Positions 1,381 to 54,523 of a stretch of DNA of 64,000 bases are shown one piece after another; positions within the stretch are counted from its first letter, which is position 1, and each line of letters opens with the position of its first letter. The position numbers and the translations under genes are program-made. Source of the stretch: Planctomycetota bacterium (lineage in GTDB: Bacteria > Planctomycetota > GCA-002687715 > CAIWVZ01); the NCBI GenBank assembly GCA_044222185.1, contig JBGANV010000014.1:1-64000 (forward strand), given 5' to 3'. Below the pieces are notes generated by a model. The model was not told where the DNA came from and did not search any database. It saw only the letters and a program-made list of their open reading frames with translations.

Positions 1381-3710
1381 CGCGCGACGTAGCTCCCACC
1401 CGTGAGCGCCGCGAGTCGCCGCATGAACTCGGCGTTGTGATCCTTGCCGATCCCGATCGTGTGGATGCGCACCTTCTTCTGATCGTTCATGCGCGACATC
1501 TCGGAGATGATCGTGCTCGGCTCGATGAGGCGACCGCGATTCGGTTGTCCGTCGGAGAGGAGGTAGATCGTGTCGAGGGCGACCGTGTTGCGCGAATCTT
1601 TCGTCCCGCGCCCTGCCATCTCGAACGCCTTCTCGAGCGCGTCGAAGATGTTCGTGGCGCCGACGGCCTTGACCTCCTCGGTCCACTTGACCGCCTCGGC
1701 CTTCACTTCCTTCGTGGCCGTGACCATCTTGGGCTTCCACACGCTCACCGTGTCGTCATAGAAGATGATGTTGAAGTTCGCGTCTTCCGGCAGTGATCGG
1801 ATCGACGCGATGAGCTCCTTCTTCGCGGCCTGGATCCGCGAAATCTGACCGGTCAGCCCCGCGACCTCGTTCATCGAGCCGGAGACGTCGAGGACGTAGA
1901 CGAGGCGCTTCGAGCGCGTGGTGATCCCGTAGAAGTTGGTGCCGCCCTTCTTCTCGCCGGGCTCCTTGTCGTCGCCCGCCTGCTCGTGCTTCTTCTTGAC
2001 GAGCGTCGAGAGCGACTTGCCGCTCTCCTGCCACCACTTGTTCCAATCATCCCGTGAGTTGCCCGGCGCGCTGCCCGTGAGATCCTTCAGCGCCTTCAGC
2101 GCCGCCTCACCGATCTCGCCCTTCAGCGCGATGGCTTCGATCATCGGTTGGATCGCGATCTGCCGTTCGAGCCGCGCCAGCGACTTGATGGCGAGGAGTC
2201 GCTCCTCCTTGCTCGCGTGATCGTCGTGGAGGATCTTCGCGAGCGGCAACGCCGCATCGTCGTCGTCCTGGAACCCGAGCGCGTCGAGCGCGGCCATCTT
2301 CAACTTCTTCTGCGACTCGGCCCGCTCCTTCGCGGCCGCCGACATCTTGTCGTCGATCGGCTCGATGGCGAGCGTCGCGAAGCGGGTCAGCATGGCCCGG
2401 ACCGTGGGCTCGCTGACTCCGCCGGCGAGCCGGATGTACTTGCTCAGGAGATAGGCGTCGTCCGCGTCCGCAAGACGCCGCATCGGTTCGAGGAAGAGCC
2501 ACGTCGTCGCGCGATCGCGGATGAGCTTGGGCCTGGTGCTGATCGTCTTGCCGATGACGCCTCTCCGGATGTCCGAGATCTGCTCGGCCATGGCGTCGGG
2601 TTTCTGGTCTGGCGGCGGCGGGGGCGGCGGGACCGACTTCACGCGCCGAGTGACGTCGCGGAATGGATGCACGCCCTCGTCCACCATGAGGCGACGCACA
2701 CCGGCGAGCGTTCCCTTCGCGGCGATGGAGTTGATGGCCGACGTCTTCGCGACGGGGTCCGTTCCGTCCAGTGCCGCGAACGTCTGCTTCAGCGCTTCGC
2801 CTTCCTTCGATGCCCAGTCCTTCCACAACTGTCCGTTGTCGAAGAACGTGACGCCGGAGATGTCCTCCAGGGCTTCGACCAACTCGTCGATCGCGCGGCC
2901 TTCGCTGCCGGCGAGTGCCTCGGCGAGCGCCGTCGTGCCTTCGACGCTCGGCAGCCCGCCGAGCGCGCGCGCGGCCGCGATCTTCACGGTCCACATCTCG
3001 TCCGTGAGCGCCTTCGTGAGGATCGGGACGGTCGTCGTGTCCCCCAATCGGCCCAGTTCGTCGACGGCGGCCGTGCGGACCGCGGCGTCGGTTCCGAGCG
3101 TCGCCATCTCGATCAGCGCGTCGCGGCTCTCCGGCGTGACGCTCGCACCGAAGATGTGAGCGAAGAGGATCTTGTCGTCCGTCGACGTCGCCTTCTGGGC
3201 GGCACCCGCGAGAGACGTCACCTGCTTGGCGCGCTCGGTCGGGTCGAGAGCCGTCAGGAGCCGGCCCAACCCGTCCATCAGCGCGAACTCGAAGGCTTCC
3301 GCGGCGTTCTGTTCGGCGGTGAGCGCAGCGAGTTTCTTCTGCAGCTCCTCTTCCTTCTTCACGGCCGGGTTCGCCGTGCCCGCCGAAACGCCGCGCCCCT
3401 TCGAGTTCTGCTCGTCGACGACCTTCCAGATGTCGCGCCGCTCGGTTCCCGACTTGTTGATGTCCGCGCGGACCTTGCGAACGACCTGCTCCACCTGGCG
3501 GATCGCCGCCACGAACTCCTCGACTCCTCGTCCATCCTTCGTCGCCGCCATGGGCTCGACGGCCGCGATCCGCTGCTCGAGCGTTCCCTGACGGAGGGAC
3601 TCACGGAGCTTCTCCTTCGCCTTGTCGAACCCGATCTCCTGACCCGGGCTGGACGCCGTCGTTGCGAAGAGGACGATCAGTGCGATGGAGGACGCAATGG
3701 GATGGCGCAT
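1377..3710 (-). CDS. Exported HEAT-repeat protein with C-terminal VWA domain
   Basis: Signal peptide; HEAT-like VRTAAVDELGRLG and VKIAAARALG repeats; MIDAS DVSGS, TN, LSDGQP. Confidence 0.88.
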   Translation of the reverse strand: MRHPIASSIALIVLFATTASSPGQEIGFDKAKEKLRESLRQGTLEQRIAAVEPMAATKDGRGVEEFVAAIRQVEQVVRKVRADINKSGTERRDIWKVVDEQNSKGRGVSAGTANPAVKKEEELQKKLAALTAEQNAAEAFEFALMDGLGRLLTALDPTERAKQVTSLAGAAQKATSTDDKILFAHIFGASVTPESRDALIEMATLGTDAAVRTAAVDELGRLGDTTTVPILTKALTDEMWTVKIAAARALGGLPSVEGTTALAEALAGSEGRAIDELVEALEDISGVTFFDNGQLWKDWASKEGEALKQTFAALDGTDPVAKTSAINSIAAKGTLAGVRRLMVDEGVHPFRDVTRRVKSVPPPPPPPDQKPDAMAEQISDIRRGVIGKTISTRPKLIRDRATTWLFLEPMRRLADADDAYLLSKYIRLAGGVSEPTVRAMLTRFATLAIEPIDDKMSAAAKERAESQKKLKMAALDALGFQDDDDAALPLAKILHDDHASKEERLLAIKSLARLERQIAIQPMIEAIALKGEIGEAALKALKDLTGSAPGNSRDDWNKWWQESGKSLSTLVKKKHEQAGDDKEPGEKKGGTNFYGITTRSKRLVYVLDVSGSMNEVAGLTGQISRIQAAKKELIASIRSLPEDANFNIIFYDDTVSVWKPKMVTATKEVKAEAVKWTEEVKAVGATNIFDALEKAFEMAGRGTKDSRNTVALDTIYLLSDGQPNRGRLIEPSTIISEMSRMNDQKKVRIHTIGIGKDHNAEFMRRLAALTGGSYVAR

Positions 3711-5204: not shown

Positions 5205-6308
5205 TCACTTCTTCGCCGGCAGCGACTCGACGGCTGCGAGGCGGATCACGATGGCTTCGATCTTGGGCAACGCTGCCAGCACCAGGGTCCCCGTTCGCTC
5301 CAGGGAGCGGACGGACAGCTTGTCGATCGTGTCCTTGGGCGTGTGCCAGTACTCCCGGTTCCCGTTCGGGCCGTACTCGAAGTCGATGAGATCCATCGCG
5401 AGTACGCCCGCCTCCTTGAACGGGATGTGGTCGTCCGAAACCTCCGTCTGCTGGACGAGGAAGTTCACGCCGAACACGTCCCGTGACGCCTCCTCGAAGA
5501 TCGAGATGAGCTGGGCTGAACAGCTCTTCGGATCGCGGACCAGCGACCAGTCGGCGTCTCCCACCATGTCCAGGAGGACGAAGGCCTTCATGGAGTAGTC
5601 GCGCATGTTCTTCGCGAGATACCGGCTTCCGTAGGTGTTGTCCGGCGTGCCGTCTTCCTGGTTCCCCCAGTCGACGTTGAAGGGCTCCTCGCCGTCCAGG
5701 AACACGAAGTAGTAGGTGACCTCGTTCTCGCGTGCCTTCAGCTTGCGCGCCAGTTCGAAGAGGACGGCGACGGCCGACGCCGAGTCGTTCGCACCGAGAA
5801 ACTTGAAGCCCTCGAAGTACTTCGAGTCGTAGTGGGCGGCGAGAGCGATGGCCTCCGGCCGTTTGCCTGGAAGAACGCCGATGAGATTCGTCATCGCGAA
5901 CTCACCCTTGGGCGTCTTCGCCGTGAAGGGCTGCTCGCGGATGTCCGCGACCCCTGCAGCCGCCAGCTCCGCCTTGATCATGCGTTGAGCCGCCTTGCTG
6001 CCCTCCGTCCCCGCCACGCGGGGGCCGATGTTCAGGATGCGTTCGACCGAGCTCATGATGGCCTTGCCGTCGACCGTCGACGTCCAGGCCTTCTCCTTCT
6101 CCTGGACCTTCTCCGGGACCCGTTCCGGGTCGCGCGGCCACTTGGCCCAGACCACCAGCGCCGCGAGCGCGATGAGACCCGCCCAGGGAAGCCATGCGGG
6201 CATGCGCGACTTGGGTGCCGCCGCCGGCTGAATGGGTTCGGGCTTGGTGGCCAGCTTCTGCTCCGGCGGTTTCGGCTTCGATGATTGACGGTTCTTCGAG
6301 GCGCTCAT
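5205..6308 (-). CDS. M28-family protein, animal-type glutaminyl-peptide cyclotransferase-like, N-terminal TM anchor
   Basis: AHYDSKYF, GANDS, DGEE, YGSRYLA, LLDMVG, DDHIPF and WHT motifs parallel human QC motifs. Confidence 0.85.
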   Translation of the reverse strand: MSASKNRQSSKPKPPEQKLATKPEPIQPAAAPKSRMPAWLPWAGLIALAALVVWAKWPRDPERVPEKVQEKEKAWTSTVDGKAIMSSVERILNIGPRVAGTEGSKAAQRMIKAELAAAGVADIREQPFTAKTPKGEFAMTNLIGVLPGKRPEAIALAAHYDSKYFEGFKFLGANDSASAVAVLFELARKLKARENEVTYYFVFLDGEEPFNVDWGNQEDGTPDNTYGSRYLAKNMRDYSMKAFVLLDMVGDADWSLVRDPKSCSAQLISIFEEASRDVFGVNFLVQQTEVSDDHIPFKEAGVLAMDLIDFEYGPNGNREYWHTPKDTIDKLSVRSLERTGTLVLAALPKIEAIVIRLAAVESLPAKK

Positions 6309-8108: not shown

Positions 8109-9785
8109 ATGACCACTCGACTCTTTCGTTCGATGACCGCACCCATCGTGCCGGCCGCCCTCCTTCTCGCCGTCCTCGCGAGCGACGGAATCGCCCAGGG
8201 TGGACCGCCGCCTCCTCCTCCGCCGCTCCCCCCCGTCAACGCGCCTCCGCAGAACGCGATCACGGAGGCGAAGCGCGTTCTCGGCAAGATCCTGTTCTGG
8301 GAGGAGCAGCTGTCGAGTGACAACACGGTGTCCTGCGGCACGTGCCACAAGCCGAACTTCGGCGGGACCGACTCGCGCCTCGCGATCAACCCAGGCCTCG
8401 ACGGGCTCGTGAACACACCGGACGACGTTCGCGGCTCGCCCGGCGTCGCGCGCACGAATGCGGCTGGTGATTTCGTCCGCGACCCGCTGTTCGCCTTCAA
8501 TGCCCAGATCACGCCGCGTCGCGCGCCCGACTTCGAGATGGGCGCGTACAGCCCGCTCCTCTTCTGGGATGGGCGCGCCGGGCCGTCGTTCACCGACCCG
8601 GTCTCGAACACGGTCGTGATTCCCGTCGGCGGAGCTCTCGAAGCTCAATCGCTGGGCCCGATCCTCGCGAACAACGAGATGGCGCACACGGGCCGCACGT
8701 TCGCGGACGCAGTCACCAAGCTTCAATCGGTGTCGCCACTGAAGCTCGCCACCAACATCCCGCCGGACATGGCCAATGCGATCGCCGCCGCGGGGAGCTA
8801 CCCGGCGTTGTTCCAGACCGCGTTCGGATCGCCGGTCATCTCCGCGCAGCGCATCGCGTTCGCCATCGCGACCTACGAGCGCACGTTGGTTCCGAACCAG
8901 ACGCCGTACGACGCCTGGGCTGCCGGGAACCCGAACGCGCTGACGCAGGTGGAGCTCCAGGGGTTCAACGCGTTCAACAACGTGGGCCGCTGCAACGTCT
9001 GCCACACGGCGCCGACGTTCAGCGACAACACGTTCCGCAACCTGGGGCTGCGCCCCATCGCCGAAGATTCGGGTCGCCAGGCGATCACGAACAACGTGAA
9101 CGATCGCGGCAAGTTCAAGGTGCCGAGCCTGCGCAACGCGGCGCTTCGGTCGCGCTTCATGCACACCGGTGGCATTCCGACGCTCGCGGGAGTGGTCGGG
9201 TTCTACGCAGGAGGCGGCGGTCCGAACCTCGACAACAAGGATCCGGTGCTCGCGGGACTCGCATTCCCACCGCTCGTCGCGCAACAACTCGGCGCGTTCC
9301 TCCAGGCCCTCGTCGATCCGCGCGCGGCGGCAGGCACGTTCCCCTTCGATCGTCCGACGTTGCGCTCGGAAGTCGTTCCGCCGAACTCGAACCGCTTCGG
9401 CCCCTCGACGCCGGGCTCGGGGAACGTTCCGCCGCAGATGCTCGCGACGTCGCCGTTGGCGATCAACGTGCCTGATTGGAAGATCGGGCTCGGGCGCGCG
9501 CTCGGCGGAACGCAGGCGTTCCTCGTGCTCGCGACCAACGACTCGGTGCCGGCGACGAACATCAATGGCCTCCTCGTCAACCTGGACATCAACCAGCTCG
9601 TGACGTCGATCCCCGTTCCGACTTCGGGTGCGGGACCCGACAACGGCGCGGCCACGGTGCACCTCGCGATCGGCAACGCCCCGGCGCTCGTCGGTGCCGA
9701 CGCCTACTTCCAGTGGGTGATCTTGGATCCGGCCGGCGCGGGCGGCGTTTCTGCCTCCCAGGGCGCACGCTTCCAGATCTTCTGA
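8109..9785 (+). CDS. Exported di-heme cytochrome c peroxidase/MauG-family protein with extra C-terminal domain
   Basis: Two CxxCH motifs (CGTCH, CNVCH), LGKILFW, FWDGRA, FKVPSLRN, FMHTG; signal peptide ending GIA|Q. Confidence 0.9.
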   Translation: MTTRLFRSMTAPIVPAALLLAVLASDGIAQGGPPPPPPPLPPVNAPPQNAITEAKRVLGKILFWEEQLSSDNTVSCGTCHKPNFGGTDSRLAINPGLDGLVNTPDDVRGSPGVARTNAAGDFVRDPLFAFNAQITPRRAPDFEMGAYSPLLFWDGRAGPSFTDPVSNTVVIPVGGALEAQSLGPILANNEMAHTGRTFADAVTKLQSVSPLKLATNIPPDMANAIAAAGSYPALFQTAFGSPVISAQRIAFAIATYERTLVPNQTPYDAWAAGNPNALTQVELQGFNAFNNVGRCNVCHTAPTFSDNTFRNLGLRPIAEDSGRQAITNNVNDRGKFKVPSLRNAALRSRFMHTGGIPTLAGVVGFYAGGGGPNLDNKDPVLAGLAFPPLVAQQLGAFLQALVDPRAAAGTFPFDRPTLRSEVVPPNSNRFGPSTPGSGNVPPQMLATSPLAINVPDWKIGLGRALGGTQAFLVLATNDSVPATNINGLLVNLDINQLVTSIPVPTSGAGPDNGAATVHLAIGNAPALVGADAYFQWVILDPAGAGGVSASQGARFQIF

Positions 9786-15541: not shown

Positions 15542-16462
15542 TCAGAGGATCTGCAGTCCCGACGCCTGTGACAGACAGAAGCCGTCGGGCATCGATGGCG
15601 TGAGCATGATCGTCTGCGCGCCGATGAACGTGCCCTGATTCGTGAACGCCGCCGGGATGCTCCCCGGCACGAACGCGTTCTGGAACGCGCCCCCAAACAG
15701 CAGGTTGAAGCTGAGGTGGTTCAGATCGAGGTTGAAGATCTGGCCGTTGGCGGTCGTGAGGCCGAGCGGGAGCATGGGCGTGTTGACCGTGTAGGCCACG
15801 TCCCAGGGTGCGCCGGCCAGTCCCGAGAACGCGATGGTCACGGTCTGCCCGGCCGGCACGGACGTGATCGCCGGCGTGAAACCGTTCGACAGGACGCCGT
15901 CGGCCGTCATGCCGGAGCAGGCCTGATTCGTCTGCCAGGCGACGACGTTGCAGATGATGCGAAACTTCCACGCGAGGCTTTGGAAGGGCCCGCTCCATGA
16001 CGCGCCGGCGTTGAACGACCCGCGATACGGCTGGATCGACGCCGTCGAGGTCACGGGTTCAACTGAAGCCTGGGCGCCGTTCTGCGGACCCCAGACGATC
16101 CAGTACGTCGCGCCCGCCGTGAGGGCGATCGGCGTCGGGAGTGTTGCGCCCTGCCAGTTCGGGGCGCCGGTCATGGACCAGGAGCCGGTGCCGAGGTTCG
16201 TGCCCGGCTGATTCGAGCCGGCATTGTGCGACCAGATCCCGATCGTGTTGGTTCCGCTGCCGATTCCCGTGAAGACCTCGACTCCCGACGCCGTGATGCC
16301 GGAGGGTGCGGTGAAGCGGATGCCGAGAAGGAGGTTTGGTCCCCCCATCGACGTGGCGGGGTCGAACGCGTTGCCTCCGTTCTCCGCGTAACAGGCTTGT
16401 GCGGCCCCGATCGAAACCAGGAGGTCGAGCGCAAGGACGGTGAAGATCATCCGGTGAAGCAT
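15542..16462 (-). CDS. Exported protein with DUF4082-like beta-sandwich and shared C-terminal domain
   Basis: Signal peptide AA|Q; LGIRFTAP..TIGIW..LPTPIALTAGATYWIV pattern; ends QTIMLTPSMPDGFCLSQASGLQIL. Confidence 0.7.
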   Translation of the reverse strand: MLHRMIFTVLALDLLVSIGAAQACYAENGGNAFDPATSMGGPNLLLGIRFTAPSGITASGVEVFTGIGSGTNTIGIWSHNAGSNQPGTNLGTGSWSMTGAPNWQGATLPTPIALTAGATYWIVWGPQNGAQASVEPVTSTASIQPYRGSFNAGASWSGPFQSLAWKFRIICNVVAWQTNQACSGMTADGVLSNGFTPAITSVPAGQTVTIAFSGLAGAPWDVAYTVNTPMLPLGLTTANGQIFNLDLNHLSFNLLFGGAFQNAFVPGSIPAAFTNQGTFIGAQTIMLTPSMPDGFCLSQASGLQIL

Positions 16463-33900: not shown

Positions 33901-34469
33901 CCACCGTAGGAGCCTGCGGCCTGAATCTGGAATGCGACGGGGATCCCGGAGTAACGCGCCCACTCGAACGCGGCGATCACGCGCGGCAGCTTGGCGAGCG
34001 TCGGCTGGCCCGTGAACCAGCTGGGCGCATCGTCGTCCGTCGAGCCCGTGAACCCGGTGAGCACCTCCGGAGGCATGTCGGCCATCGTCACGCCCGGGGG
34101 TGCGGGGACCGCCCGCCACTCCGGGCAGCGGTTCGCGAAGTACATGTAGTCCTTCGACTGGCCCTCGGTGATGCTCGAGTACGACAGTTCCACGGCCATG
34201 CCGACCTTGGCGTAGTGTCCGCCGCCGGTCTCGGGCGACGCGTCGCCGCCGCCGGCCATCTTCTTCACCATGGGCGCGACGAAGTTCGGGTCTCCGCCGA
34301 AGACGACGTACATCGTCTGGGAGTAGTCCGTGGATGCGGAGTAGGCCGCCGGCACCGGTGCCGGCGGGGGCGGGTTCGGCGCTGGTGACGGCAACTGCGC
34401 CGTGACGCGTGTGAGCGCCGTCGACACGAGTGCTGCCAGGAGACAGGAGCGAAGGACGCGGTGACTCAT
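30918..34469 (-). CDS. Exported multidomain protein: putative clan GH-A glycoside hydrolase barrel, NPCBM-like domain, B-repeat and DNRLRE/CBM96-like C-terminus
   Basis: Signal peptide TA|Q; LDPEIHF, DYNP...AFQNWL, W.NFRE and WGCPEWSP; DGVDY..W; DGWITEG...FVSFDTSTLP. Confidence 0.65.
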   Translation of the reverse strand: MSHRVLRSCLLAALVSTALTRVTAQLPSPAPNPPPPAPVPAAYSASTDYSQTMYVVFGGDPNFVAPMVKKMAGGGDASPETGGGHYAKVGMAVELSYSSITEGQSKDYMYFANRCPEWRAVPAPPGVTMADMPPEVLTGFTGSTDDDAPSWFTGQPTLAKLPRVIAAFEWARYSGIPVAFQIQAAGSYGGMRPPGHDADINFASFAADNVDLDLMMEARGKGYCMYDVSNVVDPDDDPATFDLSGSFAAFSWAQPCLLHSEYLAYLQRNITMGAQQVLAYASLPRYQGLLAGFMLDPEIHFGSFSGGAPLSKQPYDSTSGNRPAVQDYNPLMITAFQNWLASTVYNDSSPTVDSNGDGRTFWSDYRVDYPTSGGFGFDHTLPPATWAAVDPPRNYPHLLSAPRTAYWHLWCNFREKVLEDYVETFVTWLRSAGVPGNRIFNHAAGPNSSVHVSRATPHNEEWLDSWEQIGSNGGFAGVTIYTSHDTLTHRAQYLNLAAMDDAWGCPEWSPYITGTAGTFDESQAFIDSVQSTWTHGAQMLSPMYWGSTEAPAFDMTMRWTWDKSTCTGFSSVPGVGTWTTGGFCPVGSSPPCPGGSSANNCQLFSTTPAAVVLSPVMTGKLVDDYPYLCLLAYFTSTTGIAKPTTIDVAIQSAGNIVFIPNVPIHSDTAAWQWFVVDLAASMPPGAPIEQIAIYPSKLAGQIYVPSEIVLAKNNSFTSQIRSLMMAKKGAPRPPGPSSLAVTLPYDFIQKLGAGMGENLKIYGTDPLVDTNGELQFIDFGTANNHFVDNTAACGGVVKPSIAQPAATYLGQRKTARWRRLTLPNVADLALSTYIGIKDGNLSADGVDYSIWVRDLATRVRKREFAAEWRSNQWSGRRDVSLAAYAGKTVDIEFEVHGRTKAQGDFSLWGAPKIQQVHAFSLSATGCGSATADTPNGGVPHGSTVLLTATSPAGCKFLGWSTTGTPSDIANATALTTTLTMNGPHTVTAVFKTLVTVTFTSIAAEDGWITEGTGGNGGSANATNNTGNAIRVGDNASAQQFRGFVSFDTSTLPDTAVVDTASLHLVRGASSGNTTPFGSLWGDIVAGYFGASTALAVNDFQNTPGGFVFVSKGMTVTVPASNGAASDSPIGSTGLAAVNRAGPTQIRLRYQTASDNDAVQDSIGFFSAETSGSAPTLTVVYYVP

Positions 34470-35088: not shown

Positions 35089-36462
35089 TCATTGCACGGT
35101 GAATCGGATCGCCGGCGACACGCATCCCAGCCCGCCACCCGTCACGTCGAGGCAGATGCCGTCGAACGCGAGCCCGGGTGGAACAGCGAAGGGCCCCGCC
35201 GACGCCGATGTTCGTGCGGCGATGAAGTGGAATGGCTTCACGCCGACGGGCATCCCGATCTGCCAGAGGAGTTCGGTCAGATCGTTCGCGCACAGTCCAA
35301 GCAGCGGGCCGCTTCCCGGATCGCCTCCACAGAGCTGCGTGCTGTACAGGTTGAAGTACTCATGGCCCGGGACCATCTCGCAGTTCGTGATGAACATCGC
35401 GGTTCCCGGCCCACTGGCCTGCACGATCTCGAGGATGGGCCTCGGCGACGACCATCGCGTGAGGTAGCCAGCGGATATGCTGCTGCTGCACGCACACCCA
35501 CCCACGACCAGGCCAGCACGAAAGAGCTGGAAGGTGGCGACGGGCGCGGTGAGACCCGAGTCGAGCGCGTGCCACGAGGTGCCGTTCCATCCCGCAACGC
35601 GGAGTGCTGGTACGCCACCTGCCGTCGTGAACGCTCCACCGGCGATCAGTTCGCCGTCGAACGTCGTGATGGCGCGCACTCCGGAATCCAGACCGGCTCC
35701 GAGCGCATGCCAGTCGACTCCGTCCCACGCCGCGATCCGGTTCGCGGGAATGCCATTCGCCGCCGTGAAATACCCACCGGCGATCAGCTCACCGCCATGG
35801 GTCGCGAGCACTGCGACGTCTCCGTTGATCGATCCCAGCGAACCAGCCGCCGAGGCCATGAACCCGCGGCTGATCTGCGTTTGATGGTTCACGATGTCGA
35901 GTAGCGCCCAGGTCACGTCGTTGCCGTGGCTCGTCACCGCCGTGGGAACGACCATGGTCATCGGCGCATCGACGCTCCACGACGTCCCATTCCAGCGTGC
36001 GCGGACGCCGATCGTGCCCTGATGACCCGGGTCGGAACTCGTCACCGATCCACCGGCGAACAGCGCGCCGTCGTGAACCGTCATCGTTCCGATCGACATC
36101 CCGGCCGTCGGGAGCGGCAGCGGTTGCCATGTCGAACCGGTCCAGGCGGTGAGGCCGCCGCATTCGGCGATCAGAGTCCCGTTCAGCACGGCCAGTTCGC
36201 GAATCGGGTCGGCGACGCCGGCCCCGAGTGCGCTCCACTTGGATCCGTTGAACGCGGCGACATGGCGTGCGGGGACGCCGTCGGCGCTGGTGAACCCACC
36301 GCCTGCGATCAGTCGACCGTCGTAGACCGCGAGCGCCGTCACGGCCCCATCGAACCCCGAACCCACCGTCGACCAGGTCGGGGGAGGACATTGACCCGGA
36401 GTCGCGGGCGCCACGGCGACGAACACCACCAGCACCAACCAGGACGTTTGAAGCCTTGTCAT
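35089..36462 (-). CDS. Exported ~7-blade repeat propeller protein, C-terminal domain shared with the 27111 gene
   Basis: Signal peptide PG|Q; G.LIAGG.FT.A.G.PA..(I/V)A.W.G..W repeats. Confidence 0.85.
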   Translation of the reverse strand: MTRLQTSWLVLVVFVAVAPATPGQCPPPTWSTVGSGFDGAVTALAVYDGRLIAGGGFTSADGVPARHVAAFNGSKWSALGAGVADPIRELAVLNGTLIAECGGLTAWTGSTWQPLPLPTAGMSIGTMTVHDGALFAGGSVTSSDPGHQGTIGVRARWNGTSWSVDAPMTMVVPTAVTSHGNDVTWALLDIVNHQTQISRGFMASAAGSLGSINGDVAVLATHGGELIAGGYFTAANGIPANRIAAWDGVDWHALGAGLDSGVRAITTFDGELIAGGAFTTAGGVPALRVAGWNGTSWHALDSGLTAPVATFQLFRAGLVVGGCACSSSISAGYLTRWSSPRPILEIVQASGPGTAMFITNCEMVPGHEYFNLYSTQLCGGDPGSGPLLGLCANDLTELLWQIGMPVGVKPFHFIAARTSASAGPFAVPPGLAFDGICLDVTGGGLGCVSPAIRFTVQ

Positions 36463-36724: not shown

Positions 36725-39700
36725 ATGATCCCGCGCATCGCCGTGATCTGCCTCGTCGTGTCGGTTTTCGCCGGCGCGCAGATGGCCGACCTCTCACTCC
36801 ACAACGTGCCGGTCGACCTCGCCTCGGGTCCGCGCACGAACCCCACATCGTTCCCGACGATCGTCTGGACGGAGACGCTCGCGTTCCCGGGCACGACGTG
36901 CGTTCAGGTGCATCTCGCCGACCTCGCGCTCCAGGACGAGGACGACGCGCTCGTCGTCACGTCGCTCGGTGACTCCGACCAGCAGGTGCTGCGACTCTCG
37001 AACGTGAAGTTCTGGGAGAACCACTCGGCCTGGTTCAACGGTCCGGGAGTGACGCTCGAACTCCGACTCGCGCCGGGCTCGTCCGGGTCCGTGACCGTGG
37101 ACTCGGCTTGGGTTTCGGCGCCGACGATCGCGCAACCCGACACGATCTGTCAGACGGACGACCGCACCCCGTTTGGAAGCGGCGTGATTTGTCGCCTCGT
37201 GGCGTCGGCGGCACAGACCGGCGGCGGATGCACGGGGTTCCTGGTCACGAACACGTCCATGATCCTCTCGGCCGGAAGTTGCGTGGGTACTCAATTCACC
37301 GTCGCCGAATTCAACTGTCCGTTCTCGACGACGGGCGGTCTGATCGTTCATCCCGCGGTGGCCGAGCAGTTCCCGGTGGACTCGTCGACGATCCTGTCCG
37401 CCAACGGTGCCGCCGGTGCCAACTGGGCCGTCGCGCGGCTCCATCCGAACAGCACGGGCGGGACGGCGGCTGGAGCCCACGGGTTCCTGACCGTCGCCAC
37501 GAGCTACCCGACGCTCGCCAACGTCGCGTGCTCGGTCCGCGGGTATGGCGCCGATGCGTCACCCGACCCCACACGCAACTTCGTATTGCAGAGTGACACG
37601 GCGACGCTCGCGTCCGTGTCCGGTCACGTGCTCCATCACACGTGCGACACGAACACTGGGAGCGAAGGTTCCCCGATCCTCGTCAACAACGAAGTCGTCG
37701 GGATCAACACGCACGGCGGATGCAACCCCACGCCGATCTCGCTCTCGAATGCGGGCACCGGTGTCCTCGAGTCCTCGCTCCAGGTGGCACGGACGGCGAC
37801 CTCGGGTTGCGCCACGGTGACACCGCCGGATGGCAACCCCGTCAACGCGCCGTGCAGCAACACGATCCTCACGATCGTTCCCGTCGCCAGCCAGTGGAAC
37901 GTGGTGGGTGTGAACGGCCCAGGTGACTGGGACGTCGCGGTGAGCGGTGTCTCCTCCACACGACCAGGCGGTTCCGCGGATTTCGTGTTCGCGGACGGAC
38001 GCGCGGGGACGATCCCGCCCGCCAGCGGCAACGTCTTCAACTCCTTCAGCGGTTCGAACGCACCGGTCCAGTTCCGCAGCGAATCGAACATCATCAATGC
38101 GGGCGCTGCCGCCCAGTTCAACTGGAACGCGCTCGACGTCTTCCGCGCGTTCGCGATCAACGTGACCAGCGCGGGCGGTCACGACGTCTTCATCCATGGC
38201 GACCCGCAGTTGACCTACTCGCTCTACACCGCTGCGGGTACGACGGCGTGGCGATCGCGGTCGGCTCTCACACCGACGGCCGCCGGTACGGCTGGCGATG
38301 GTGGGCAGGTCGGAGTGAATCTCCCCGTCGGCGTCCACCTGCTCGTGATCGCGCGGACCGGGGGCGTGGGCACCGTGCCCCAGACTCTCTACACGGTGAA
38401 CGTCTGCCCGTCGGTCGCAGCCGTCACCGTGCCGGTGAACGGGGTCGCGTCATCGACGGCCGCGTGCAACCGGCTGGGCGTGACTCCGGTCTCCGTGCAG
38501 TGGAACGTCGTGATGCTGGGATCGTTGTCCGACTGGAACCTGGGTGTCGGCGCGGCGCAGTCGAATTCGCTCGCGGCGAGCACCGAGTGCGTGGTGGCAA
38601 ACGGAACGCTCGGCGCCGTGACGCCGAACGTCGGATCGGCCTGGCGTGTCGGCGGCAGCCTCGGAGCGACGTTCGAACATCGCACGCCGGCAGCGATCGC
38701 GGTCGGATCGGTTGCGACGACGACGATCCCGGCTGGATCCATCGGGCGCGCATTCGCGTTCACGATCACGACGCCAGGACAGCACGGCATCATGTTCCCC
38801 GTGGCTCCGTCGAGTTTCGCCTGGCAACTCTTCGACGCCGGGACGTCGCCCGCGTGGCGTGCGAAGTCGGCGGCCGTGGCGTCGGGGACCGTATCGGCCA
38901 CGCCGGCGACGGTCACCCTCACCGCGGGTCAGTATCTGCTCGTCGCCCACGCGGAGCCGGGCCCCGTGGCCGCGTCCACGCTCATGCGCGTCCTCGTGGC
39001 TCCGACCGTCGCGACGCTCACGCTCGTGCAGGGGACGACCAACAGCGCCAACGGCGCCGCCACGCCGTTCATCCACACGCCTCAGCCCAACGTCTGGAAC
39101 GTCGTCGCAGCCACCTCCGACGCCACCACCGGCGACGACCTGACGATCGGTGCGGTCGACTCGGCAGGGAGCGGCAACGGAGTCGCCGAGATGCTCGTCG
39201 CCGATGGGCACGCGGGCGTGATCGACGCGACGCCGGGCATCGTGACACGCACCACTGGTGCCGCCTCGATCTCCATCGAACACGCGGTGAGAACCCTCCT
39301 GCCGTTCAATTCCGTGCTCAACGACTCCATGGGAACGGCGGACGTCGTGCGGCTCTACGAGTTCAACGCACCGGTCGCGGCGTCCTACCAGATCGTCGTA
39401 TCGGGCGCTCCGAGCCTGCGTTTCCGCCTCTACGCGCCGAGCGGTTCGTCAGCCTGGGTGCCGAAGCTCTCTTCCATCGCGAACGGACTCGCCAACGGCG
39501 GGACGACGCTCGTGTCGCTCGCGCCGGGAGCCCACGCGCTCGTCGTTCATCGCGACGGTGCGACGGGCACGGCCGCGTCCTACAGCCTCACGGTCACGCC
39601 GGCGCCCAGCGGCCAGCCGGCGATCACCGGACTCTCGCCCGCCACCGTGACTGCCGGTGCCGCCCAGTTCACGCTGACCGTCAACGGCACGGGAATCACG

Positions 39701-41762: not shown

Positions 41763-44700
41763 ATGCGAGCCCGAACCGTCGCCCTCCTCCTGTCGTTCGT
41801 CGCTTCGTCCGTGGTCGGCCAGCAGGCGAGTCTGCCTCTTGCGAACCATCCCGTGCGCGCCAGTTCCGGTGTGCGACAGAACACGGGCAGCTCTGCCATC
41901 GAAACCGTGTGGACTGAGACCATCTCCGTCGCCTCGGCGACGTCCATCCAGCTTCAGTTTCAGGGCATCCAGCTCGGCGACGAGCGTGACGCGCTCGTCG
42001 TCACGAGTCGCTGGGACGGCCAGCAGCAGGCGCTGACGTCGAGCAACCTGAAGTTCTGGGCCAACCACTCGGCCTGGTTCAACGGCTCGGCCGTCACGGT
42101 CGAGTTGCGACTCGCGCCGGGATCGAGCGGGTACGCGCTCGTGGATTCGGCGTGGTTCATGGGGTCGATCGCCATGGTCCCCGAATCGCTGTGCGCCGGT
42201 GACAATCGGGCGTTGTACACCGATGCGCGAATCTGCCGACTCATCGCGTCCGCCGGTCAGACCGCCGGCGGTTGCACCGGGTTCCTCGGCGCTGCGTCGT
42301 CGACGATCTTCTCGGCGGGGAGCTGCGTCGGGTCACAGTTCACGATCGCCGAGTTCAGCTGCCCGGCGTCGACGGCGGGCGGTCTCATCGTTCATCCGCC
42401 CGTCTCCGAACAGTTCCCCGTCGACGCGTCGACGGTGCACTCGAACAACGGGGCCGCGGGAGCGAACTGGGCCGTGGCCCGGCTCCACCCGAACAGCACG
42501 GGACAGACGGCTGCCGGGCTTCATGGCGTCTTCACGTTGCTGCCGCTGGCGCAGCCCTACCCGGCCAACGGAGCGGCGCTGACGGTCGCCGGCTTCGGGA
42601 CGGATACGACGCCGGACGCCACGCGCAACTACGTCCTGCAGTCCGCCGCAGGGACCGTGCAGGCACCGATCACGTCGAACCTGATCACTCACGATGCGGA
42701 CACGGCCACAGGAGGCGAGGGGTCGCCGATTCTCGTCGGCACGACGGTGGTCGGCGTGAACACGCACGGCGGATGCACGGCGTTCCCAGGGCTCGGGAAC
42801 AACGCGGGCACCGGCATCCAGGAGGGCGCGCTCCAGTCCGCGTTCAGCAGCATCAAGGGCTGCGCGACGACTTCGCTCGCAGCCAACACCCCGCAGGCGC
42901 TCACCTGTTCACCGACGGTGTTCTCGTTCGTCCCGAACGCATCGCAGTGGAACGTGGTCGGCGTCGGCGGCACGACGGACTGGGATGTCGAGATCGGAAC
43001 CGCATCGTCGAGCCGCAACGGGACTCAGTCCGACTTCGTCTTCGTCGACGGCCGCGCTGGCGCGTTGGCGCCGATCTCGGGAGTCGCGACGGACATCGGC
43101 GCATTCGCGAACGGCACGATCCACTTCGCCAGCGAATCGGCGACCGTCGTCGACGACGCGCCAGCCAGCTTCACCTGGAGCTCGACTGCGGCGCTGCGCG
43201 TCTTCGCGGTGAACGTCACGAGTGCCGGCCTCCACGACGTCCTGGTCGCTGGCGACCCGACGCTCCAGTATTCGCTCTACGCGCCCAACGGCACGACGGC
43301 TTGGCGTTCGCGCGGCACGGAGACGCCGCTCTCGGCGGGGAATCTGGGCGGCGCTCCGGTGGGCGTCACCATGGGGCTGGGCGTGCATCTGCTCGTCATC
43401 AGCCGCGCGGGCGGCCCTGGCACGCCATCGAACCCCACGTTCACGATCCATGTCTGCCACCACGCGACGGTCTCGCCCGCCCTCAACGGAACGCCCGTGA
43501 ACGTCAACGCCTGCGCCCAGGTCAGCCTGCCGTCGTCTGCGGGTTGGAACGTCGTGTCCGTGTCCACGCCTGCGACGGCAAACTGGAACGTCTGCTTCGA
43601 CTCGGCGCAATCGCTTCGCACGGGGAGCGCGACGGACTTCGTCATCGCGCGGGGAGTGCCGTCTCTCGTGAGCGGCATGGTCTGGCGTCAATCCGGCTCG
43701 GCGTCGGGAGCGGTCGAGTATCAGAGCGACGTCGCGTTGACGCTCGGCGCACCGACGCCCGTGTCGTTTCCGGCTGGGAGTTCCGTCCGCGTCCTTTCGT
43801 TCCAGGCCGCGGTCGCCGGCAACTACGACATCTCGTTCCCCACGGGATCGGCGAGCCTGAAATGGAGGCTCTTCGATCACGGCACCATCGGTCAGTGGCG
43901 CTCCAGCGATGATGCAACGGCGAGCGGCACGCTGTCGGCGTTCCCGACGACGGTCTCTCTCGTGAGCGGCATCAACGCCCTCGTCATCTTCGGCGAGCCG
44001 GGACCGCTCGCGGTGGGAACGACGTGCACGGTTCGCGTTTGCGCGACGCCCGTGCCGGTGACGCTCACGCAGGGTGTGGGAACTCCGCTCGCTCCCATCT
44101 GCGCCGACCTCACCCACACGCCCGAGGGCGGATTCTGGAACGCGATCGCCGTAGTCCCTGACTCCGTGGGCGCCGCCGATCTCTACGTCGGCACCACGGC
44201 GGCGGTGCAGCCGGGCTTCGGGCAGTGCGAACTCGTGGTGGCGAACGGTCACGTCGGGACGGTTCCCGCCGTGAACGCGCTGGCCGTCCGTACGTCCGTC
44301 CTGGGGACGATGGCGGCCGAACACGCCGCACGACTGACGCTCGCGTCGGCCACTCCGCTCGCCGACTCGTTCGCCGCGACGGATGTCGTCCGCATCTACG
44401 AGTTCCCGGTGACCGTGGCCGCGACCCACCAGATCACGGTGAGCGGCGCGCCGGCGCTGCGTTGGGCGGCCTTCGACTCCAACACGGGCGCCGGATGGGT
44501 GACGCGCGCGACGGCCGTCGCATCGGGGACTGGCGACGGCGTGTCGGTTGGCGCCACGTTCACGATCGGGACGGCGGCCATCGCCGTCTTCCGCGAGCCG
44601 AACGCCTCGACGCCCGTCACGTTCGCCGTCACCTGCGGTCCGCCCGCACAGCCCGCTCCAACCGTCACGTCCATCTCGCCGACGTTGGTGCAGGTGGGCA

Positions 44701-50594: not shown

Positions 50595-52142
50595 ATGCAC
50601 AGCAGAAGGTTCGCCGGCTCCATGGCTTTCTTCGGAATCCTGGCGCTCACGTGCGCGTCGAGTCTGCGCGTTCCCGGCCAGCAGATCGGCGGAGCCGCAT
50701 ACGAGCGCGCCGAACTGTCTCGCCGACTCCTCCGCGCCGAGGAGGCCTGGGCGCGTTTTCCGAAGCGCCACGCGATGGCGATTCCGGCGCTGAACGCGGC
50801 CGTCGGGGCCTACTTCGGGCGCGGCGGTGTGGAGGCGGCGCGCCAGCTCGACGCGGCCTCCGGAGTGCTCTGGGACGATGGCGACGATCCGGGCGCGGTC
50901 TGGTCACGCTCGCGGTCCGTACTTCCAGTTCCATCGCTCGTGGACCGAGCGCGTTTCACCCGTTCGGAAGCGCGGATCCGGATCGCGCCGCTGTATGACC
51001 CGCGCCTCGGGGATGCGCACGGCAAGCTCCTGATGACCGTGAGCGCGGGGAGTCGTTCCACGTGCCTGGCGGAACCCCTCGCCTACGACACCCGCGAGAT
51101 CGACGTCCTGTTGGTCAGCGGCGATGCCAAACCCGTGAATCGATCCGCGAAGCGTCAGGAGTTCGTGCTGCCGATCGATCTGCCCGCGGGCGACGTCGAT
51201 CTCACGGTGACGCTCGCCGTGCCTCCGCCATCGTCGCCGACCCCCGCGGATCCTGACGGCATGCACGGTCGTTTCGCGACGCTGAACGTGGGCGTCGTCG
51301 ACCGTCTCGAGGAACGGCTGACCTCTCTCGAGTCCGCAGCCGACGACGCGACCGATCCGGACGTGGGAGCGACGCTCGCGTTGCGCGTGCAGATCCTCCG
51401 CGACCTCGCATCGGGCAAGCCCGGCGAGACGCTCCTGCAATCGGCCTCGCTGCTCGAACGGACGGAGGTGCTGGCGAAGCGCGCGTCCGCCAGCGATGCC
51501 ATGCGCGGTCTCGTCGGCGATCAGCTCGTCGCGGGCCCGCGCGGTCGGCGGACCCGTGACGTGACCCGTGTCCTCGTGCCCGACGGACGACCCGCCGACA
51601 CACCGCTGCCGCTCGTCATCGCCGTTCACGGAACAGGCGGGAGCGAGAACATGTTCTTCGAGGCCTACGACCGCGGTCACGTCGCGCGGTCGTCCCGCGA
51701 GCGCGGGTGGATGCTCGCCGCGCCGCGGGGGCCGGTCTCGATGTCGACGCGGCACATCGACGAGGCCCTCCGGCTCGCGGCCCGATTGCATGCCGTGGAT
51801 CGAAGGCGCGTCTTCCTGATCGGTCATTCACTCGGCGCCGGGCAGGTGGCTGCGGCGGCGGCACTCGCGCCGCAGCGGTTCGCCGCAGTTGCCCTGGTCA
51901 GCGGTGGACTCCTGACCGGTGTTTCTCCGGGGCCGAAGGACCTGCCCACGTTCGTGGGAATCGGCGCGGATGACCCGCTGTTTGGTGCTCGCCGTACCGC
52001 CGCGTCACGTCCCGAGTCATACCCCGGCTCGCAGCCGGCTCTTCGCGTCGACCGCGTCTATCCGAACGTCGAGCACGTGATGATCATGCACGAGTGTCTC
52101 GACGACGTGATGGAGTTCTTCGATCGCGTCGCGAAGCTGTAG
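50595..52142 (+). CDS. Exported alpha/beta hydrolase (esterase/PHB-depolymerase-like C-terminal domain)
   Basis: PLVIAVHGTGG, GHSLG nucleophile elbow, G.DD and EH. Confidence 0.85.
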   Translation: MHSRRFAGSMAFFGILALTCASSLRVPGQQIGGAAYERAELSRRLLRAEEAWARFPKRHAMAIPALNAAVGAYFGRGGVEAARQLDAASGVLWDDGDDPGAVWSRSRSVLPVPSLVDRARFTRSEARIRIAPLYDPRLGDAHGKLLMTVSAGSRSTCLAEPLAYDTREIDVLLVSGDAKPVNRSAKRQEFVLPIDLPAGDVDLTVTLAVPPPSSPTPADPDGMHGRFATLNVGVVDRLEERLTSLESAADDATDPDVGATLALRVQILRDLASGKPGETLLQSASLLERTEVLAKRASASDAMRGLVGDQLVAGPRGRRTRDVTRVLVPDGRPADTPLPLVIAVHGTGGSENMFFEAYDRGHVARSSRERGWMLAAPRGPVSMSTRHIDEALRLAARLHAVDRRRVFLIGHSLGAGQVAAAAALAPQRFAAVALVSGGLLTGVSPGPKDLPTFVGIGADDPLFGARRTAASRPESYPGSQPALRVDRVYPNVEHVMIMHECLDDVMEFFDRVAKL

Positions 52143-52150
52143 CCTGCGCG

Positions 52151-54523
52151 CTACTTCTTCGTGTCGCTGGGGAGCAGGCGGACCGGGCTGAGATCGAGAT
52201 AGGCCTTCCCCGAGACGTTCGTGCAGTGGACCGCCACCACGTTCTTCCCGGGCCGGAGCGCGGCCTTCGCGTCGTCGCTGATGGGAAGGTCGAAGTACCC
52301 GTTCATGGAATACCCGGGCGAGCGGGCGGCGAGCACGCCGTTGATGTACACCTCCGCGTCGTCGTCGTGAGCGAGGACGAGGCGGATCTCTCCCGGATCG
52401 CCCTTGGGCAACGTGAAGTCGCGCCGGATCCAGATCTCGGGCGTCTTCCACTCGGTGCGAACGGGGCAGTAGGGGGACGATTGGTTGCCGAACCCCGCGG
52501 CACCGGTCTTCCAGGCGCCGTCCTCGAAGCCGGTGGCGAACCAGTCGGCCGGCGGTTCGTCGAGCGCGTATTTCCACACGACCGGCGACTGGCGCGCCGG
52601 AGGAAGCAGGATTTCGCGCGGTGCGGTGGCCGTCGCCGACGCTGCATCCGGCGGTGGCGAGTCCTCGAGGAACGCCTCGATGGACTTGAACCCCGCCAGA
52701 TTCCCTTCGCCGGTCCCCGGGTAGACGCTGACGATCTTCACCTGGATCGACGTCACGCTGCGCACCGGGAACGCGATGCGTTGTTTGCGCCGCGTCGTGT
52801 CGTCGAGGACGAGCGGCAGCGGCGCATCGTCGTTGATGCGAACCTCGATGTTCTTGGGCCGTGCCCAGTGCTTGTCGTTGTCGCCATAGAGGTGCGCCGA
52901 AGTCAGCTTGATGCAGTTCATCCGCACGCCTGGGCGCATGGCGAGTTGGATCCACGGCGCCGGATCCTCCCGCTTGGGCAGCCAGCTCGTCCCGAAGTGG
53001 CCGTCGGTGACGCGCTCGGCCGCGCGCTCTGGGTCGTAGGTGCTCGACGCGGTGACGGATGCGCGGGCGGCGGTGAGGAGGTTCTTGCCTGCATCGCGGA
53101 TCGCTTCGCGATGCCAAGGTTCCTCGGCGTCGTTGACGACGAGCGTGACGACGTTCGAATCGACGGTGTCGGTGACGACGCCGTCCGGGGGACCGATCTG
53201 CAATCGGGCGCGGAGCTTCAGCGTGCCGTTGCGCGTGATCACGTGGCGGAGGCTCGACGCCGGGCTGACGAGCTCCGAGTCCGCCGGCAGCGGGATGTCC
53301 GCGACGACGTCGTCGTCGAGCAGCCACGCGATGGACTTGGCCTTCTTTCCCGCCGCGAGCGCCGATTTCACGGGATCTCCGAGAACGCGGATCCACGCCG
53401 TCAGCGGATTCGCACGATCGGTGCCGATCGTGAAGGCCGCGTTCGCCGCGGCGTCCTCCGTGGCGGCGGGGCGCGACGCCGGCGCGGCCTTGCCTCCGCT
53501 CACGCGCGACGCCCGGCGGAGGAACAGCAGCGCGAAGCACGTGTCGTCGTCGCCCCAGCCCCACGAGCCGTCGGCCTTCTGCGCGGCGACGATCGCCGTC
53601 GCACCCTCCGGATACCACCAGTGCGCCCCGATCTGCTCGCGCTCGGTGAACGCGCAGAACCGCTCGAGCGCATAGAGGTAGTAGTAGAGCCAGCGGTTGT
53701 TGACGTCGCCCTGGACGTGCAGATCGACCATCTTGTCCACGGCCCAGTGCTGATCGAGCCAAGTCACGCCGCGGTTCACGGACGCTTCGATCTTGTGCTT
53801 CAGATCCAGCGGAAGTCGCTCGCCGAGGGATTCGGCGCAGACCGTAAGCACGGTCATGCCCGCGACCGTCATGCTCGCGGAGGGCCTGTCTCCCTTGCGA
53901 TACCCCCAGCCGCCGTAGCTCTGCTGCTGGTCGATCATGTCCTCCGCGACAGAGGTCCAGAACACGGCGGAGCCGGTCTTGTATCCCGAGAGCCTTGCGG
54001 CGCGCAGGCCGAGGACCGCGTACTGCGTGTTCGAGAGGTCGGTCCAGGCGGCGTCGGTGCCGTCGTGGCTGCGTGGATACCCCCATCGCGGACCCACCTT
54101 CTCGATCCCGTTGCCGACCTGTTTGACGATGCGATCGGCGAGGAGCTTCACGTCCTTCTGAGGACGCGCGTCGCCGACGGCCATCCACGCCATGAGGTTG
54201 CAGCCGAGATCGTAGGTGCGCGTCGCGGGCCACGACTTCATGGATGCCAGCGCGGCGCGCGCGGCCGGGTGCGTCGGCGGCACGTCACACTTGAGCAGGG
54301 TGTACAGCGCGAGCGCCGTCATGCCGTGGTACTGCTCGGGCTGGGGGCCGCGCCACGACCCGTCGACCTCCTGGGCTTTCATCAACCAGGCCACACCTTT
54401 TTCGATGGCCTTGTCGACGGCGGCCCCGCTGGGGCCGGCGGGTCGCACCTGGCCGCGAGCGCAGAAGGTCGCGAGGCAGGCCGCGATGGACAGCGCGAAG
54501 AGACGAGCGAGATGAGGGGGCAT
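52151..54523 (-). CDS. Exported alpha/alpha-toroid (prenyltransferase/squalene-oxidase repeat) protein with discoidin and galactose-binding-like domains
   Basis: Q..DGSW repeats, DLSNTQYA and YYYLYALER; TASS..A..DG...T.W; W.TG.AGFG, IWIRRDF and HDDDAEVYING. Confidence 0.8.
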   Translation of the reverse strand: MPPHLARLFALSIAACLATFCARGQVRPAGPSGAAVDKAIEKGVAWLMKAQEVDGSWRGPQPEQYHGMTALALYTLLKCDVPPTHPAARAALASMKSWPATRTYDLGCNLMAWMAVGDARPQKDVKLLADRIVKQVGNGIEKVGPRWGYPRSHDGTDAAWTDLSNTQYAVLGLRAARLSGYKTGSAVFWTSVAEDMIDQQQSYGGWGYRKGDRPSASMTVAGMTVLTVCAESLGERLPLDLKHKIEASVNRGVTWLDQHWAVDKMVDLHVQGDVNNRWLYYYLYALERFCAFTEREQIGAHWWYPEGATAIVAAQKADGSWGWGDDDTCFALLFLRRASRVSGGKAAPASRPAATEDAAANAAFTIGTDRANPLTAWIRVLGDPVKSALAAGKKAKSIAWLLDDDVVADIPLPADSELVSPASSLRHVITRNGTLKLRARLQIGPPDGVVTDTVDSNVVTLVVNDAEEPWHREAIRDAGKNLLTAARASVTASSTYDPERAAERVTDGHFGTSWLPKREDPAPWIQLAMRPGVRMNCIKLTSAHLYGDNDKHWARPKNIEVRINDDAPLPLVLDDTTRRKQRIAFPVRSVTSIQVKIVSVYPGTGEGNLAGFKSIEAFLEDSPPPDAASATATAPREILLPPARQSPVVWKYALDEPPADWFATGFEDGAWKTGAAGFGNQSSPYCPVRTEWKTPEIWIRRDFTLPKGDPGEIRLVLAHDDDAEVYINGVLAARSPGYSMNGYFDLPISDDAKAALRPGKNVVAVHCTNVSGKAYLDLSPVRLLPSDTKK

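Follow-up and report, generated by a model that had tools for sequence, protein, structure and literature searches.

The closest described counterpart of the system considered here is the Q-rule of the Bacteroidetes, in which Gln is the first residue (position +1) after the cleaved signal peptide in most signal peptidase I substrates, with a proposed role in the protection of exported proteins. The pathway has been demonstrated in Porphyromonas gingivalis, the organism of the glutaminyl cyclase PgQC, where protein levels fell when the Gln was replaced (PMC10653852; PMC5837995; both consulted in part). Here we describe a 64,000-nucleotide stretch of DNA (the window; contig JBGANV010000014.1, positions 1 to 64,000) from a Planctomycetota bacterium, which carries a gene for a predicted glutaminyl cyclase (5205..6308, minus strand) together with 13 genes for exported proteins that would begin with Gln once their signal peptides are removed. 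By sequence and by analogy with the Bacteroidetes, we consider it probable that this lineage runs a Q-rule of the Bacteroidetes type with a membrane-anchored cyclase of its own, pyroglutamate being the expected product.

In the available portions of the two papers on the Q-rule (PMC5837995, from 2018, and PMC10653852, from 2023) the rule is presented as specific to the Bacteroidetes and is explained by their proteolytic lifestyle, with PMC10653852 stating that it applies to this phylum and not to others. The survey in PMC5837995, as far as its available text goes, covered Bacteroidetes, Chlorobi, Spirochaetes, Chlamydiae and Cyanobacteria, with scattered high values reported for Ignavibacterium and for a few cyanobacteria. 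Planctomycetes are not mentioned in the available text of either paper, and the names Planctomycetes and Acidobacteria were not found in the supplements of PMC5837995. The publications using the term 'Q-rule', among the matches listed, all concern P. gingivalis, oral bacteria or Bacteroidetes, and no report of a Q-rule in Planctomycetes was found in the literature searched, a search that did not extend to the paper behind the Protein Data Bank (PDB) entries 7D18 and 7D1B. These two entries, released in 2021, are cyclases from an Acidobacteriales bacterium and from Fimbriiglobus ruber, and they are the closest solved relatives of the window cyclase at only ~33% and 26% identity, respectively. 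F. ruber is a planctomycete; M28-fold cyclases outside the Bacteroidetes, including that of one planctomycete, are already recognized as enzymes. What is new here, as supported by the sequence, is the occurrence of a Q-rule together with a predicted cyclase in a probable planctomycete lineage, and the distinct anchor of that cyclase.

The initial annotation, made by eye and with no signal-peptide predictor, had proposed that 13 exported proteins start with Gln, and it had identified the sites by gene starts rather than by cleavage sites. All 13 N-termini are present in the translations. They are given below with the coordinates of the signal peptide plus the Gln codon; an arrow marks the predicted cleavage site and the length is that of the signal peptide.

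3639..3710, minus strand: SPG↓Q, 23 residues; HEAT/VWA protein, gene 1377-3710
8109..8198, plus strand: GIA↓Q, 29 residues; di-haem cytochrome c peroxidase, gene 8109-9785
16397..16462, minus strand: GAA↓Q, 21 residues; DUF4082 protein, gene 15542-16462
34395..34469, minus strand: VTA↓Q, 24 residues; 1183-residue protein, gene 30918-34469
36391..36462, minus strand: TPG↓Q, 23 residues; beta-propeller (DUF5122) protein, gene 35089-36462
36725..36781, plus strand: AGA↓Q, 18 residues; giant protein 1, gene 36725-41656
41763..41822, plus strand: VVG↓Q, 19 residues; giant protein 2, a tandem paralogue, gene 41763-46694
50595..50681, plus strand: VPG↓Q, 28 residues; alpha/beta hydrolase, gene 50595-52142
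54449..54523, minus strand: ARG↓Q, 24 residues; 790-residue prenyltransferase-like protein, gene 52151-54523, with a competing lipobox-like IAA↓C upstream
58345..58419, plus strand: GGS↓Q or SQA↓Q, 22 or 24 residues; Cys-rich 437-residue protein, gene 58345-59658
59776..59829, plus strand: VGA↓Q, 17 residues; gene 59776-61605
61903..61956, plus strand: VLA↓Q, 17 residues; transglutaminase-like protein, gene 61903-62979
63039..63089, plus strand: LLA↓Q, 16 residues; gene running off the end of the window, with alternative starts at 63024 and 63036

The small-residue rule for positions -3 and -1 is satisfied at all 13 sites, the signal peptides are 16-29 residues long and 12 of the 13 contain no other Gln. 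For the prenyltransferase-like protein, A↓Q or G↓Q is found in each of the five nearest full-length relatives, none of which is flagged as a lipoprotein, so that cleavage by signal peptidase I is favoured over the lipobox-like site. Gly occupies position -1 in five of the 13 sites (genes starting at 3710, 36462, 50595, 41763 and 54523), the first three of which read Pro-Gly↓Gln. Junctions of the PG↓Q and G↓Q types recur in homologues; Gly at -1 is an uncommon feature of signal peptidase I sites, and in the Prevotella control described below the residue is, in contrast, nearly always Ala.

To locate signal peptides without reference to the +1 residue, a purpose-written scanner centred on candidate starts was used. 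It requires a start codon followed by a net positive n-region of at most 25 residues, an uncharged core of 8 residues with a mean hydropathy of at least 2.0 and, within 14 residues after the core, a site with A/G/S/C/T at -1 and A/V/S/T/G/I/L/C at -3, and it adds coding-frame checks by third-position GC. Both the residue sets and the weights approximate the -3/-1 rule. Applied to the window, the scanner gave 19 signal-peptide-like N-termini, and in 13 of these, exactly the 13 listed above, an allowed site precedes Gln. The other six include two lipoproteins (1380, minus strand, ending VGG↓C, and 14001, plus strand, ending LQS↓C), a false positive that is a cytoplasmic pyridoxal-phosphate enzyme (6354, plus strand; Pfam PALP) and three candidates on the plus strand that look like membrane anchors (3791, 16624 and 19337). 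After curation, Gln follows the predicted site in 13 of 16 non-lipoprotein candidates; the statement that nearly every non-lipoprotein export substrate of the window has Gln at +1 holds to this extent. As in the Bacteroidetes, most substrates carry the residue, and we regard the window value as within the published range of Q-values (~60–77%, mean 71%; PMC5837995, consulted in part).

The significance of these counts was assessed by permuting the 30 residues after the core. In the unfiltered non-lipoprotein set, an allowed site precedes Gln in 12 of 17 candidates, whereas 200 shuffles averaged 2.9 and peaked at 9. Once candidates were dropped that had an over-long core or a further hydrophobic segment, the count was 11 of 15, whereas 300 shuffles averaged 2.6 and peaked at 8. 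The corresponding binomial tails are 1.6e-6 and 2.9e-6. Gln is also the commonest +1 residue over all allowed sites, with an expectation-maximization estimate of 0.51–0.54 compared with a background of ~0.04. Two 200 kb controls behaved differently from one another: Prevotella sp. oral taxon 299, for which a Q-rule is known, gave 13/30 against a shuffle mean of 4.0, whereas a Ralstonia megaplasmid of GC content similar to that of the window (68%) gave 5/30 against a mean of 6.1, which is the chance level. A 50 kb stretch of Escherichia coli (2/8 unfiltered, 2/4 filtered) was too small to use as a control. That the Prevotella count lies below the published Q-values indicates that about half of the scanner candidates are not true signal peptides and that the scanner is conservative.

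These results bear directly on the possibility that the pattern is an artefact of cleavage sites chosen by eye, or of amino-acid composition. Alternative allowed sites do lie upstream (TTA↓SS, APA↓TP and ASS↓VV), and in about half of the cases a best-site rule chooses them. Against an artefact, the scan blind to +1 recovered the sites assigned by eye, shuffles of the same residues yield far fewer Gln sites than the 11–12 observed, the high-GC negative control is at chance and, as described below, homologue families retain Gln precisely at the junction despite variation on either side of it. We therefore regard this explanation as largely refuted, with only a very small residual probability.

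The gene for the candidate enzyme lies on the minus strand and has the following features.

5205..6308, minus strand: predicted glutaminyl cyclase gene (M28 fold, type II or animal-type), 367 residues, stop codon included in the coordinates; from the open reading frame, Pfam, PDB and Foldseek
5271..5888, minus strand: M28 catalytic domain, residues 141-346 (Pfam), containing D175, E207, E208, D247, D293 and H322
6147..6203, minus strand: single N-terminal membrane helix of the cyclase, residues 36-54, after a basic 35-residue tail; best 19-residue hydrophobic window

The start at 6308 is backed by close homologues, the N-termini of which begin at the aligned Met; the longest open reading frame would begin upstream at an in-frame ATG at 6458, which the close homologues lack. 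Residues 141-346 match Peptidase_M28 (PF04389) with an E-value of 1.7e-32. By sequence, the best match among all PDB chains is the Acidobacteriales enzyme 7d18 (1.9e-37, 132 bits), followed by the F. ruber enzyme 7d1b (8.7e-20) and, in the range 1e-20 to 1e-13 overall, by Drosophila and human (iso)glutaminyl cyclases and the P. gingivalis and Tannerella forsythia cyclases. An AlphaFold model of the protein built from 28 relatives has a predicted local distance difference test score (pLDDT) of 89.7 and a predicted template modelling (TM) score of 0.81. In a Foldseek comparison its top match is 7d18, entitled 'Acidobacteriales bacterium glutaminyl cyclase' (E-value of 1.2e-25, TM score of 0.85 on the target), the second is 7d1b, 'Fimbriiglobus ruber glutaminyl cyclase' (8.8e-23), and further neighbours are the P. 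gingivalis, Drosophila, human Golgi-resident, T. forsythia and tick cyclases; the TM scores to the bacterial cyclases are 0.82–0.85 on the target. By entry title, 47 of the 49 Foldseek matches listed are glutaminyl cyclases. The remaining two, 3tc8 and 4fuu, are structural-genomics entries for M28 proteins of Bacteroidales, and 4fuu has the same sequence as the Bacteroides thetaiotaomicron cyclase entries 7d1d and 7d1e.

The five animal-type cyclase motifs that had been attributed to the protein were all located, HYDSKYF at residue 159, GANDS at 172, DGEE at 205, DDHIPF at 292 and WHT at 321, and an alignment of 28 sequences shows H159, Y160, D161, D175, D205, G206, E207, E208, D247, D292, D293, W321 and H322 to be invariant. 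In the human cyclase, according to the available part of the source, Asp159, Glu202 and His330 are zinc ligands, Glu201 and Asp248 are catalytic, and Phe325 and Trp329 line the site, while bacteroidal cyclases carry Asp in place of Glu202 (PMC7948796). Matched by motif rather than by direct alignment to the human sequence, the three zinc ligands correspond to D175, E208 and H322, the two catalytic residues to E207 and D247, and Trp329 to W321. D175 (in GANDS), E208 (in DGEE) and H322 (in WHT) also align with the corresponding motifs of the fly isoglutaminyl cyclase, and we take D293 to be the counterpart of human Asp305, a residue named in the titles of PDB entries. The window enzyme retains the Glu-Glu pair of the human enzyme, in contrast to the bacteroidal cyclases, in which the second acidic zinc ligand is Asp. 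Judged on its sequence and its modelled fold, the protein would be a type II glutaminyl cyclase.

Because M28 is mainly a family of aminopeptidases, the protein might instead be an ordinary membrane-anchored di-zinc aminopeptidase. Such enzymes share its fold and its Pfam family, according to the available text of PMC5837995 an animal-type orthologue could have either activity, and there is a weak NCBIfam match to LapA (1.3e-4). This match, like all of the NCBIfam aminopeptidase matches, is below threshold (21 bits compared with a cut-off of 600). The top PDB match named solely as an aminopeptidase, YwaD from Bacillus subtilis (6hc6; 1.2e-13), scores 54 bits, compared with 132 bits for the nearest solved relative, which was deposited as a glutaminyl cyclase. 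Other aminopeptidases match more weakly still (Aneurinibacillus 2ek8, 5.5e-7; LapA, 8.7e-4), and none of the three is among the 49 Foldseek matches listed, which are dominated by cyclases as described above. Moreover, the Glu-Asp-Asp residues used in catalysis by the human cyclase are invariant here, and an exported proteome that begins with Gln is an obvious substrate pool for a cyclase. Overall, sequence and model support placing the M28 protein among the enzymes deposited as glutaminyl cyclases rather than among aminopeptidases, in keeping with the predicted function originally assigned to it, and we consider a purely aminopeptidase function to be improbable.

The gene directly downstream of the cyclase on the same strand (4278-5018, minus strand) encodes a 246-residue protein without a Pfam match, with a zinc-ribbon-like N-terminus (Cys-X2-Cys...Cys-X2-Cys) and a single hydrophobic segment. 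This gene and that of the cyclase may share a transcript.

The cyclase had been proposed to have a transmembrane anchor that would place it outside the cytoplasm. Hydrophobicity predicts a single helix at residues 36-54, and the AlphaFold model has a helix at residues 39-55. The preceding residues 1-35 contain eight Lys and Arg compared with two Asp and Glu. Under the positive-inside rule a basic flank stays in the cytoplasm; the tail would therefore be cytoplasmic and the catalytic domain external, so that the protein should be oriented N-in, C-out, as the sequence and the model both suggest. A lipobox was looked for in the window cyclase and none was found, the membrane helix being present instead. 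When the types of N-terminus were sorted in the 120 cyclase relatives among the matches listed, a long basic tail followed by a helix was found in 25, a lipobox, as in the P. gingivalis enzyme, in 40, a short n-region in 52 and no hydrophobic N-terminus in three. The relatives with a tail and helix are the nearest ones (~50–64% identity, bar three exceptions in the 45 rows inspected), and those with a lipobox are more distant. The helix anchor thus marks the window's own clade.

This anchor distinguishes the window cyclase from the Bacteroidetes system, in which ~80% of the animal-type orthologues are lipoproteins according to the available text of PMC5837995: the window cyclase is predicted to be held by a membrane helix with a long basic cytoplasmic tail, not by lipid. 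The lipoprotein anchor is typical of the Bacteroidetes system and is not essential to the mechanism. A second point of comparison is the human Golgi-resident isoglutaminyl cyclase (isoQC; QPCTL; PDB 3pb4 and related entries), which has its fold and motifs in common with the window enzyme. The tether of human isoQC is an N-terminal signal-anchor helix and not a lipid or a cleaved signal peptide, and the tether predicted for the window enzyme is of the same kind. The human enzyme differs in being eukaryotic, in residing in the Golgi and in acting on selected substrates rather than on a whole exported proteome.

The distribution of Gln among homologues was compared for several of the exported proteins. 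For the cytochrome c peroxidase (gene 8109-9785), 120 homologues were listed, the window's own included, at 47–62% identity; of the 15 that carry an organism name, 14 belong to Planctomycetota or Phycisphaerae. An allowed site precedes Gln in 106 of 107 signal-peptide-like N-termini in this set; the other 13 failed the n-region rule, and most of these show A↓Q by eye. The signal peptides and the Pro/Gly-rich mature ends of the peroxidases vary widely, yet the Gln junction is kept. The homologues of the transglutaminase-like protein (gene 61903-62979; 59–67% identity) are of mixed phyla, with three named Opitutus and one Planctomycetes. Here Gln is at the junction in only 32 of 87 signal-peptide-like N-termini, and the three Opitutus proteins carry Ala, Asp or Gly instead; Gln is therefore not a trait of the transglutaminase-like family. 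The contrast between the peroxidases of Planctomycetota and this mixed-phylum set indicates that Gln follows the lineage and not the protein family. Among 150 representative relatives of the 790-residue prenyltransferase-like protein, Gln is present in 68 and a different residue in 29, and no signal peptide was detected in the other 53. The predicted N-termini show the rule for the window's lineage and, through one protein family, for many uncultured Planctomycetota. The transglutaminase-like family could act as a probe for lineages that follow the rule.

A scan of genome contigs found at least 80 loci with related cyclases; among the matches listed, the closest has 44% identity to the window enzyme, and none is a near relative. 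The strength of the pattern at these loci varied. At 52 Acidobacteriota loci, Gln was found in 45 of 137 candidates (shuffle mean of 20.8, maximum of 31), with ~31–40% Gln in each of the sub-groups Vicinamibacteria, Terriglobia and Blastocatellia. Nine Methylomirabilota loci gave 5/24 (mean of 1.5, maximum of 5), and 15 other or uncertain loci gave 3/25 with no Gln enrichment. Four Planctomycetota loci (1/8 unfiltered, 1/2 filtered) have too few signal peptides to judge. These counts hint at a partial Q-rule in Acidobacteriota and Methylomirabilota. The plasmids of cultured Planctomycetota also yielded few signal peptides: none of three clear ones on a Singulisphaera plasmid has Gln, and one of two on a Phycisphaera mikurensis plasmid does. 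From the plasmid counts, the rule is not phylum-wide, and from the moderate or absent enrichment at loci with related cyclases, the presence of a cyclase alone does not predict a strong rule.

This variation could be taken to favour a different origin of the pattern, namely that Gln at +1 stems from a preference of the signal peptidase I of this lineage, or from selection of another kind acting on mature N-termini, with the M28 protein acting on unrelated substrates and any pyroglutamate forming spontaneously. The moderate enrichment at the Acidobacteriota and Methylomirabilota loci and its absence from the other group fit such an origin, as does the fact that in the window the enzyme is tied to its proposed substrates solely by presence on one contig. 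We know of no signal peptidase with a preference for Gln at +1. In Bacteroidetes, experiment ties the pattern to the cyclase (PMC5837995 and PMC10653852, as far as their available text goes), and the predicted placement of the window enzyme on the outer face of the cytoplasmic membrane is that found for the P. gingivalis enzyme. On balance, an origin in signal peptidase or in unrelated selection appears unlikely, though less so than a purely aminopeptidase function for the enzyme.

A Q-rule served by the window cyclase can be described as a pathway of three steps. In the first, which is seen in the sequence, Sec substrates have signal peptides of the ordinary type I, in which Gln follows the -3/-1 site in about four-fifths of cases. 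In the second, by homology, the type II zinc cyclase would sit on the outer face of the cytoplasmic membrane beside signal peptidase I and would cyclize the Gln laid bare by cleavage to pyroglutamate, with ammonia given off. In the third, by analogy with P. gingivalis, the cap would shield periplasmic, outer-membrane and secreted proteins from aminopeptidases. The proposal that the system described for Bacteroidetes also operates in this lineage is supported at the computational level, with cyclization as its deduced step. The attribution to a probable planctomycete, here an uncultured bacterium of high GC content, likewise agrees with the organism names on the nearest homologues: the nearest named homologues are from metagenome-assembled genomes of Planctomycetota or Phycisphaerae, and by these names the host phylum is Planctomycetota rather than Bacteroidetes.

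Several points weigh against a cyclase-driven Q-rule in this lineage. The data comprise 64 kb of one genome, and the cyclase is linked to the pattern by co-occurrence on a single contig. The scanner is crude and is not SignalP, and it finds Gln in Prevotella at 13/30 only, below the published ~60–77%. When a single best site is chosen blind to +1, it precedes Gln in only 5/17 unfiltered and 5/15 filtered candidates. This best-site rule undercounts Gln because its weights favour Ala at -1, and five or six of the 13 sites lack Ala at that position (Gly in five, and Ser or Ala at the site in gene 58345-59658); the main counts rest on the any-allowed-site tally, the shuffles and the controls, and not on the best-site choice. 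For the enzyme, the human cyclase (~60 bits, partial alignment) and YwaD (54 bits) score alike by sequence, and within the M28 fold sequence alone does not wholly separate cyclase from aminopeptidase activity. Finally, N-terminal Gln cyclizes slowly by itself, so that a cyclase is not strictly required by the pattern.

Other genes of the window are noted for completeness. The two giant proteins (36725-41656 and 41763-46694, both plus strand) are 1643 residues each and 48% identical over their full length; they have no Pfam match, and their C-terminal halves resemble many Ig-like repeats. An 863-residue beta-propeller protein (27168-29756, plus strand) has DUF5122/Rax2-type Pfam matches in common with the product of 35089-36462; the scanner finds no classical signal peptide in it, yet its weakly hydrophobic N-terminus ends VYS↓Q. 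Ordinary housekeeping genes occupy 21637-23800 (minus strand) and 24143-26946 (plus strand) and include, by Pfam, a PAPS reductase-family gene, FolB, a short-chain dehydrogenase, a HAD-NUDIX fusion and one gene with EF-Tu-type GTPase and APS kinase domains (sulfate activation). An alanyl-tRNA synthetase is encoded at 9879-12536. The gene at 46716-49736 (minus strand) encodes a 1006-residue protein in which a Ser/Thr protein kinase is fused to an FGE-sulfatase (formylglycine-generating enzyme-like) domain. The product of 55097-58162 (minus strand) is an extracytoplasmic function (ECF)-type sigma factor (regions 2 and 4) fused to an extension of ~850 residues with repeated CarboxypepD_reg domains and a hydrophobic segment; the architecture resembles a sigma factor joined to an anti-sigma factor or sensor in a single chain.

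The existence of a planctomycete lineage with an equally strong rule and a cyclase variant of its own would weaken the explanation of the Q-rule by a proteolytic lifestyle, and capping by pyroglutamate would then reach a phylum that is abundant in the environment. For such organisms, signal-peptide prediction and N-terminal proteomics should allow for N-termini that are blocked and 17 Da lighter, and the clade of cyclases anchored by a membrane helix is a ready target for expression and assay. A wider reading can be put forward tentatively, with slightly more doubt than confidence: pyroglutamate capping may be a recurrent trait tied to the cyclase in double-membraned bacteria rather than a speciality of the Bacteroidetes, near-complete in a large uncultured branch of Planctomycetota with its own helix-anchored cyclase clade and partial in Acidobacteriota and Methylomirabilota with related cyclases. 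If so, the rule would have arisen or spread several times, and the frequency of Gln at +1 would be usable as a genomic marker.

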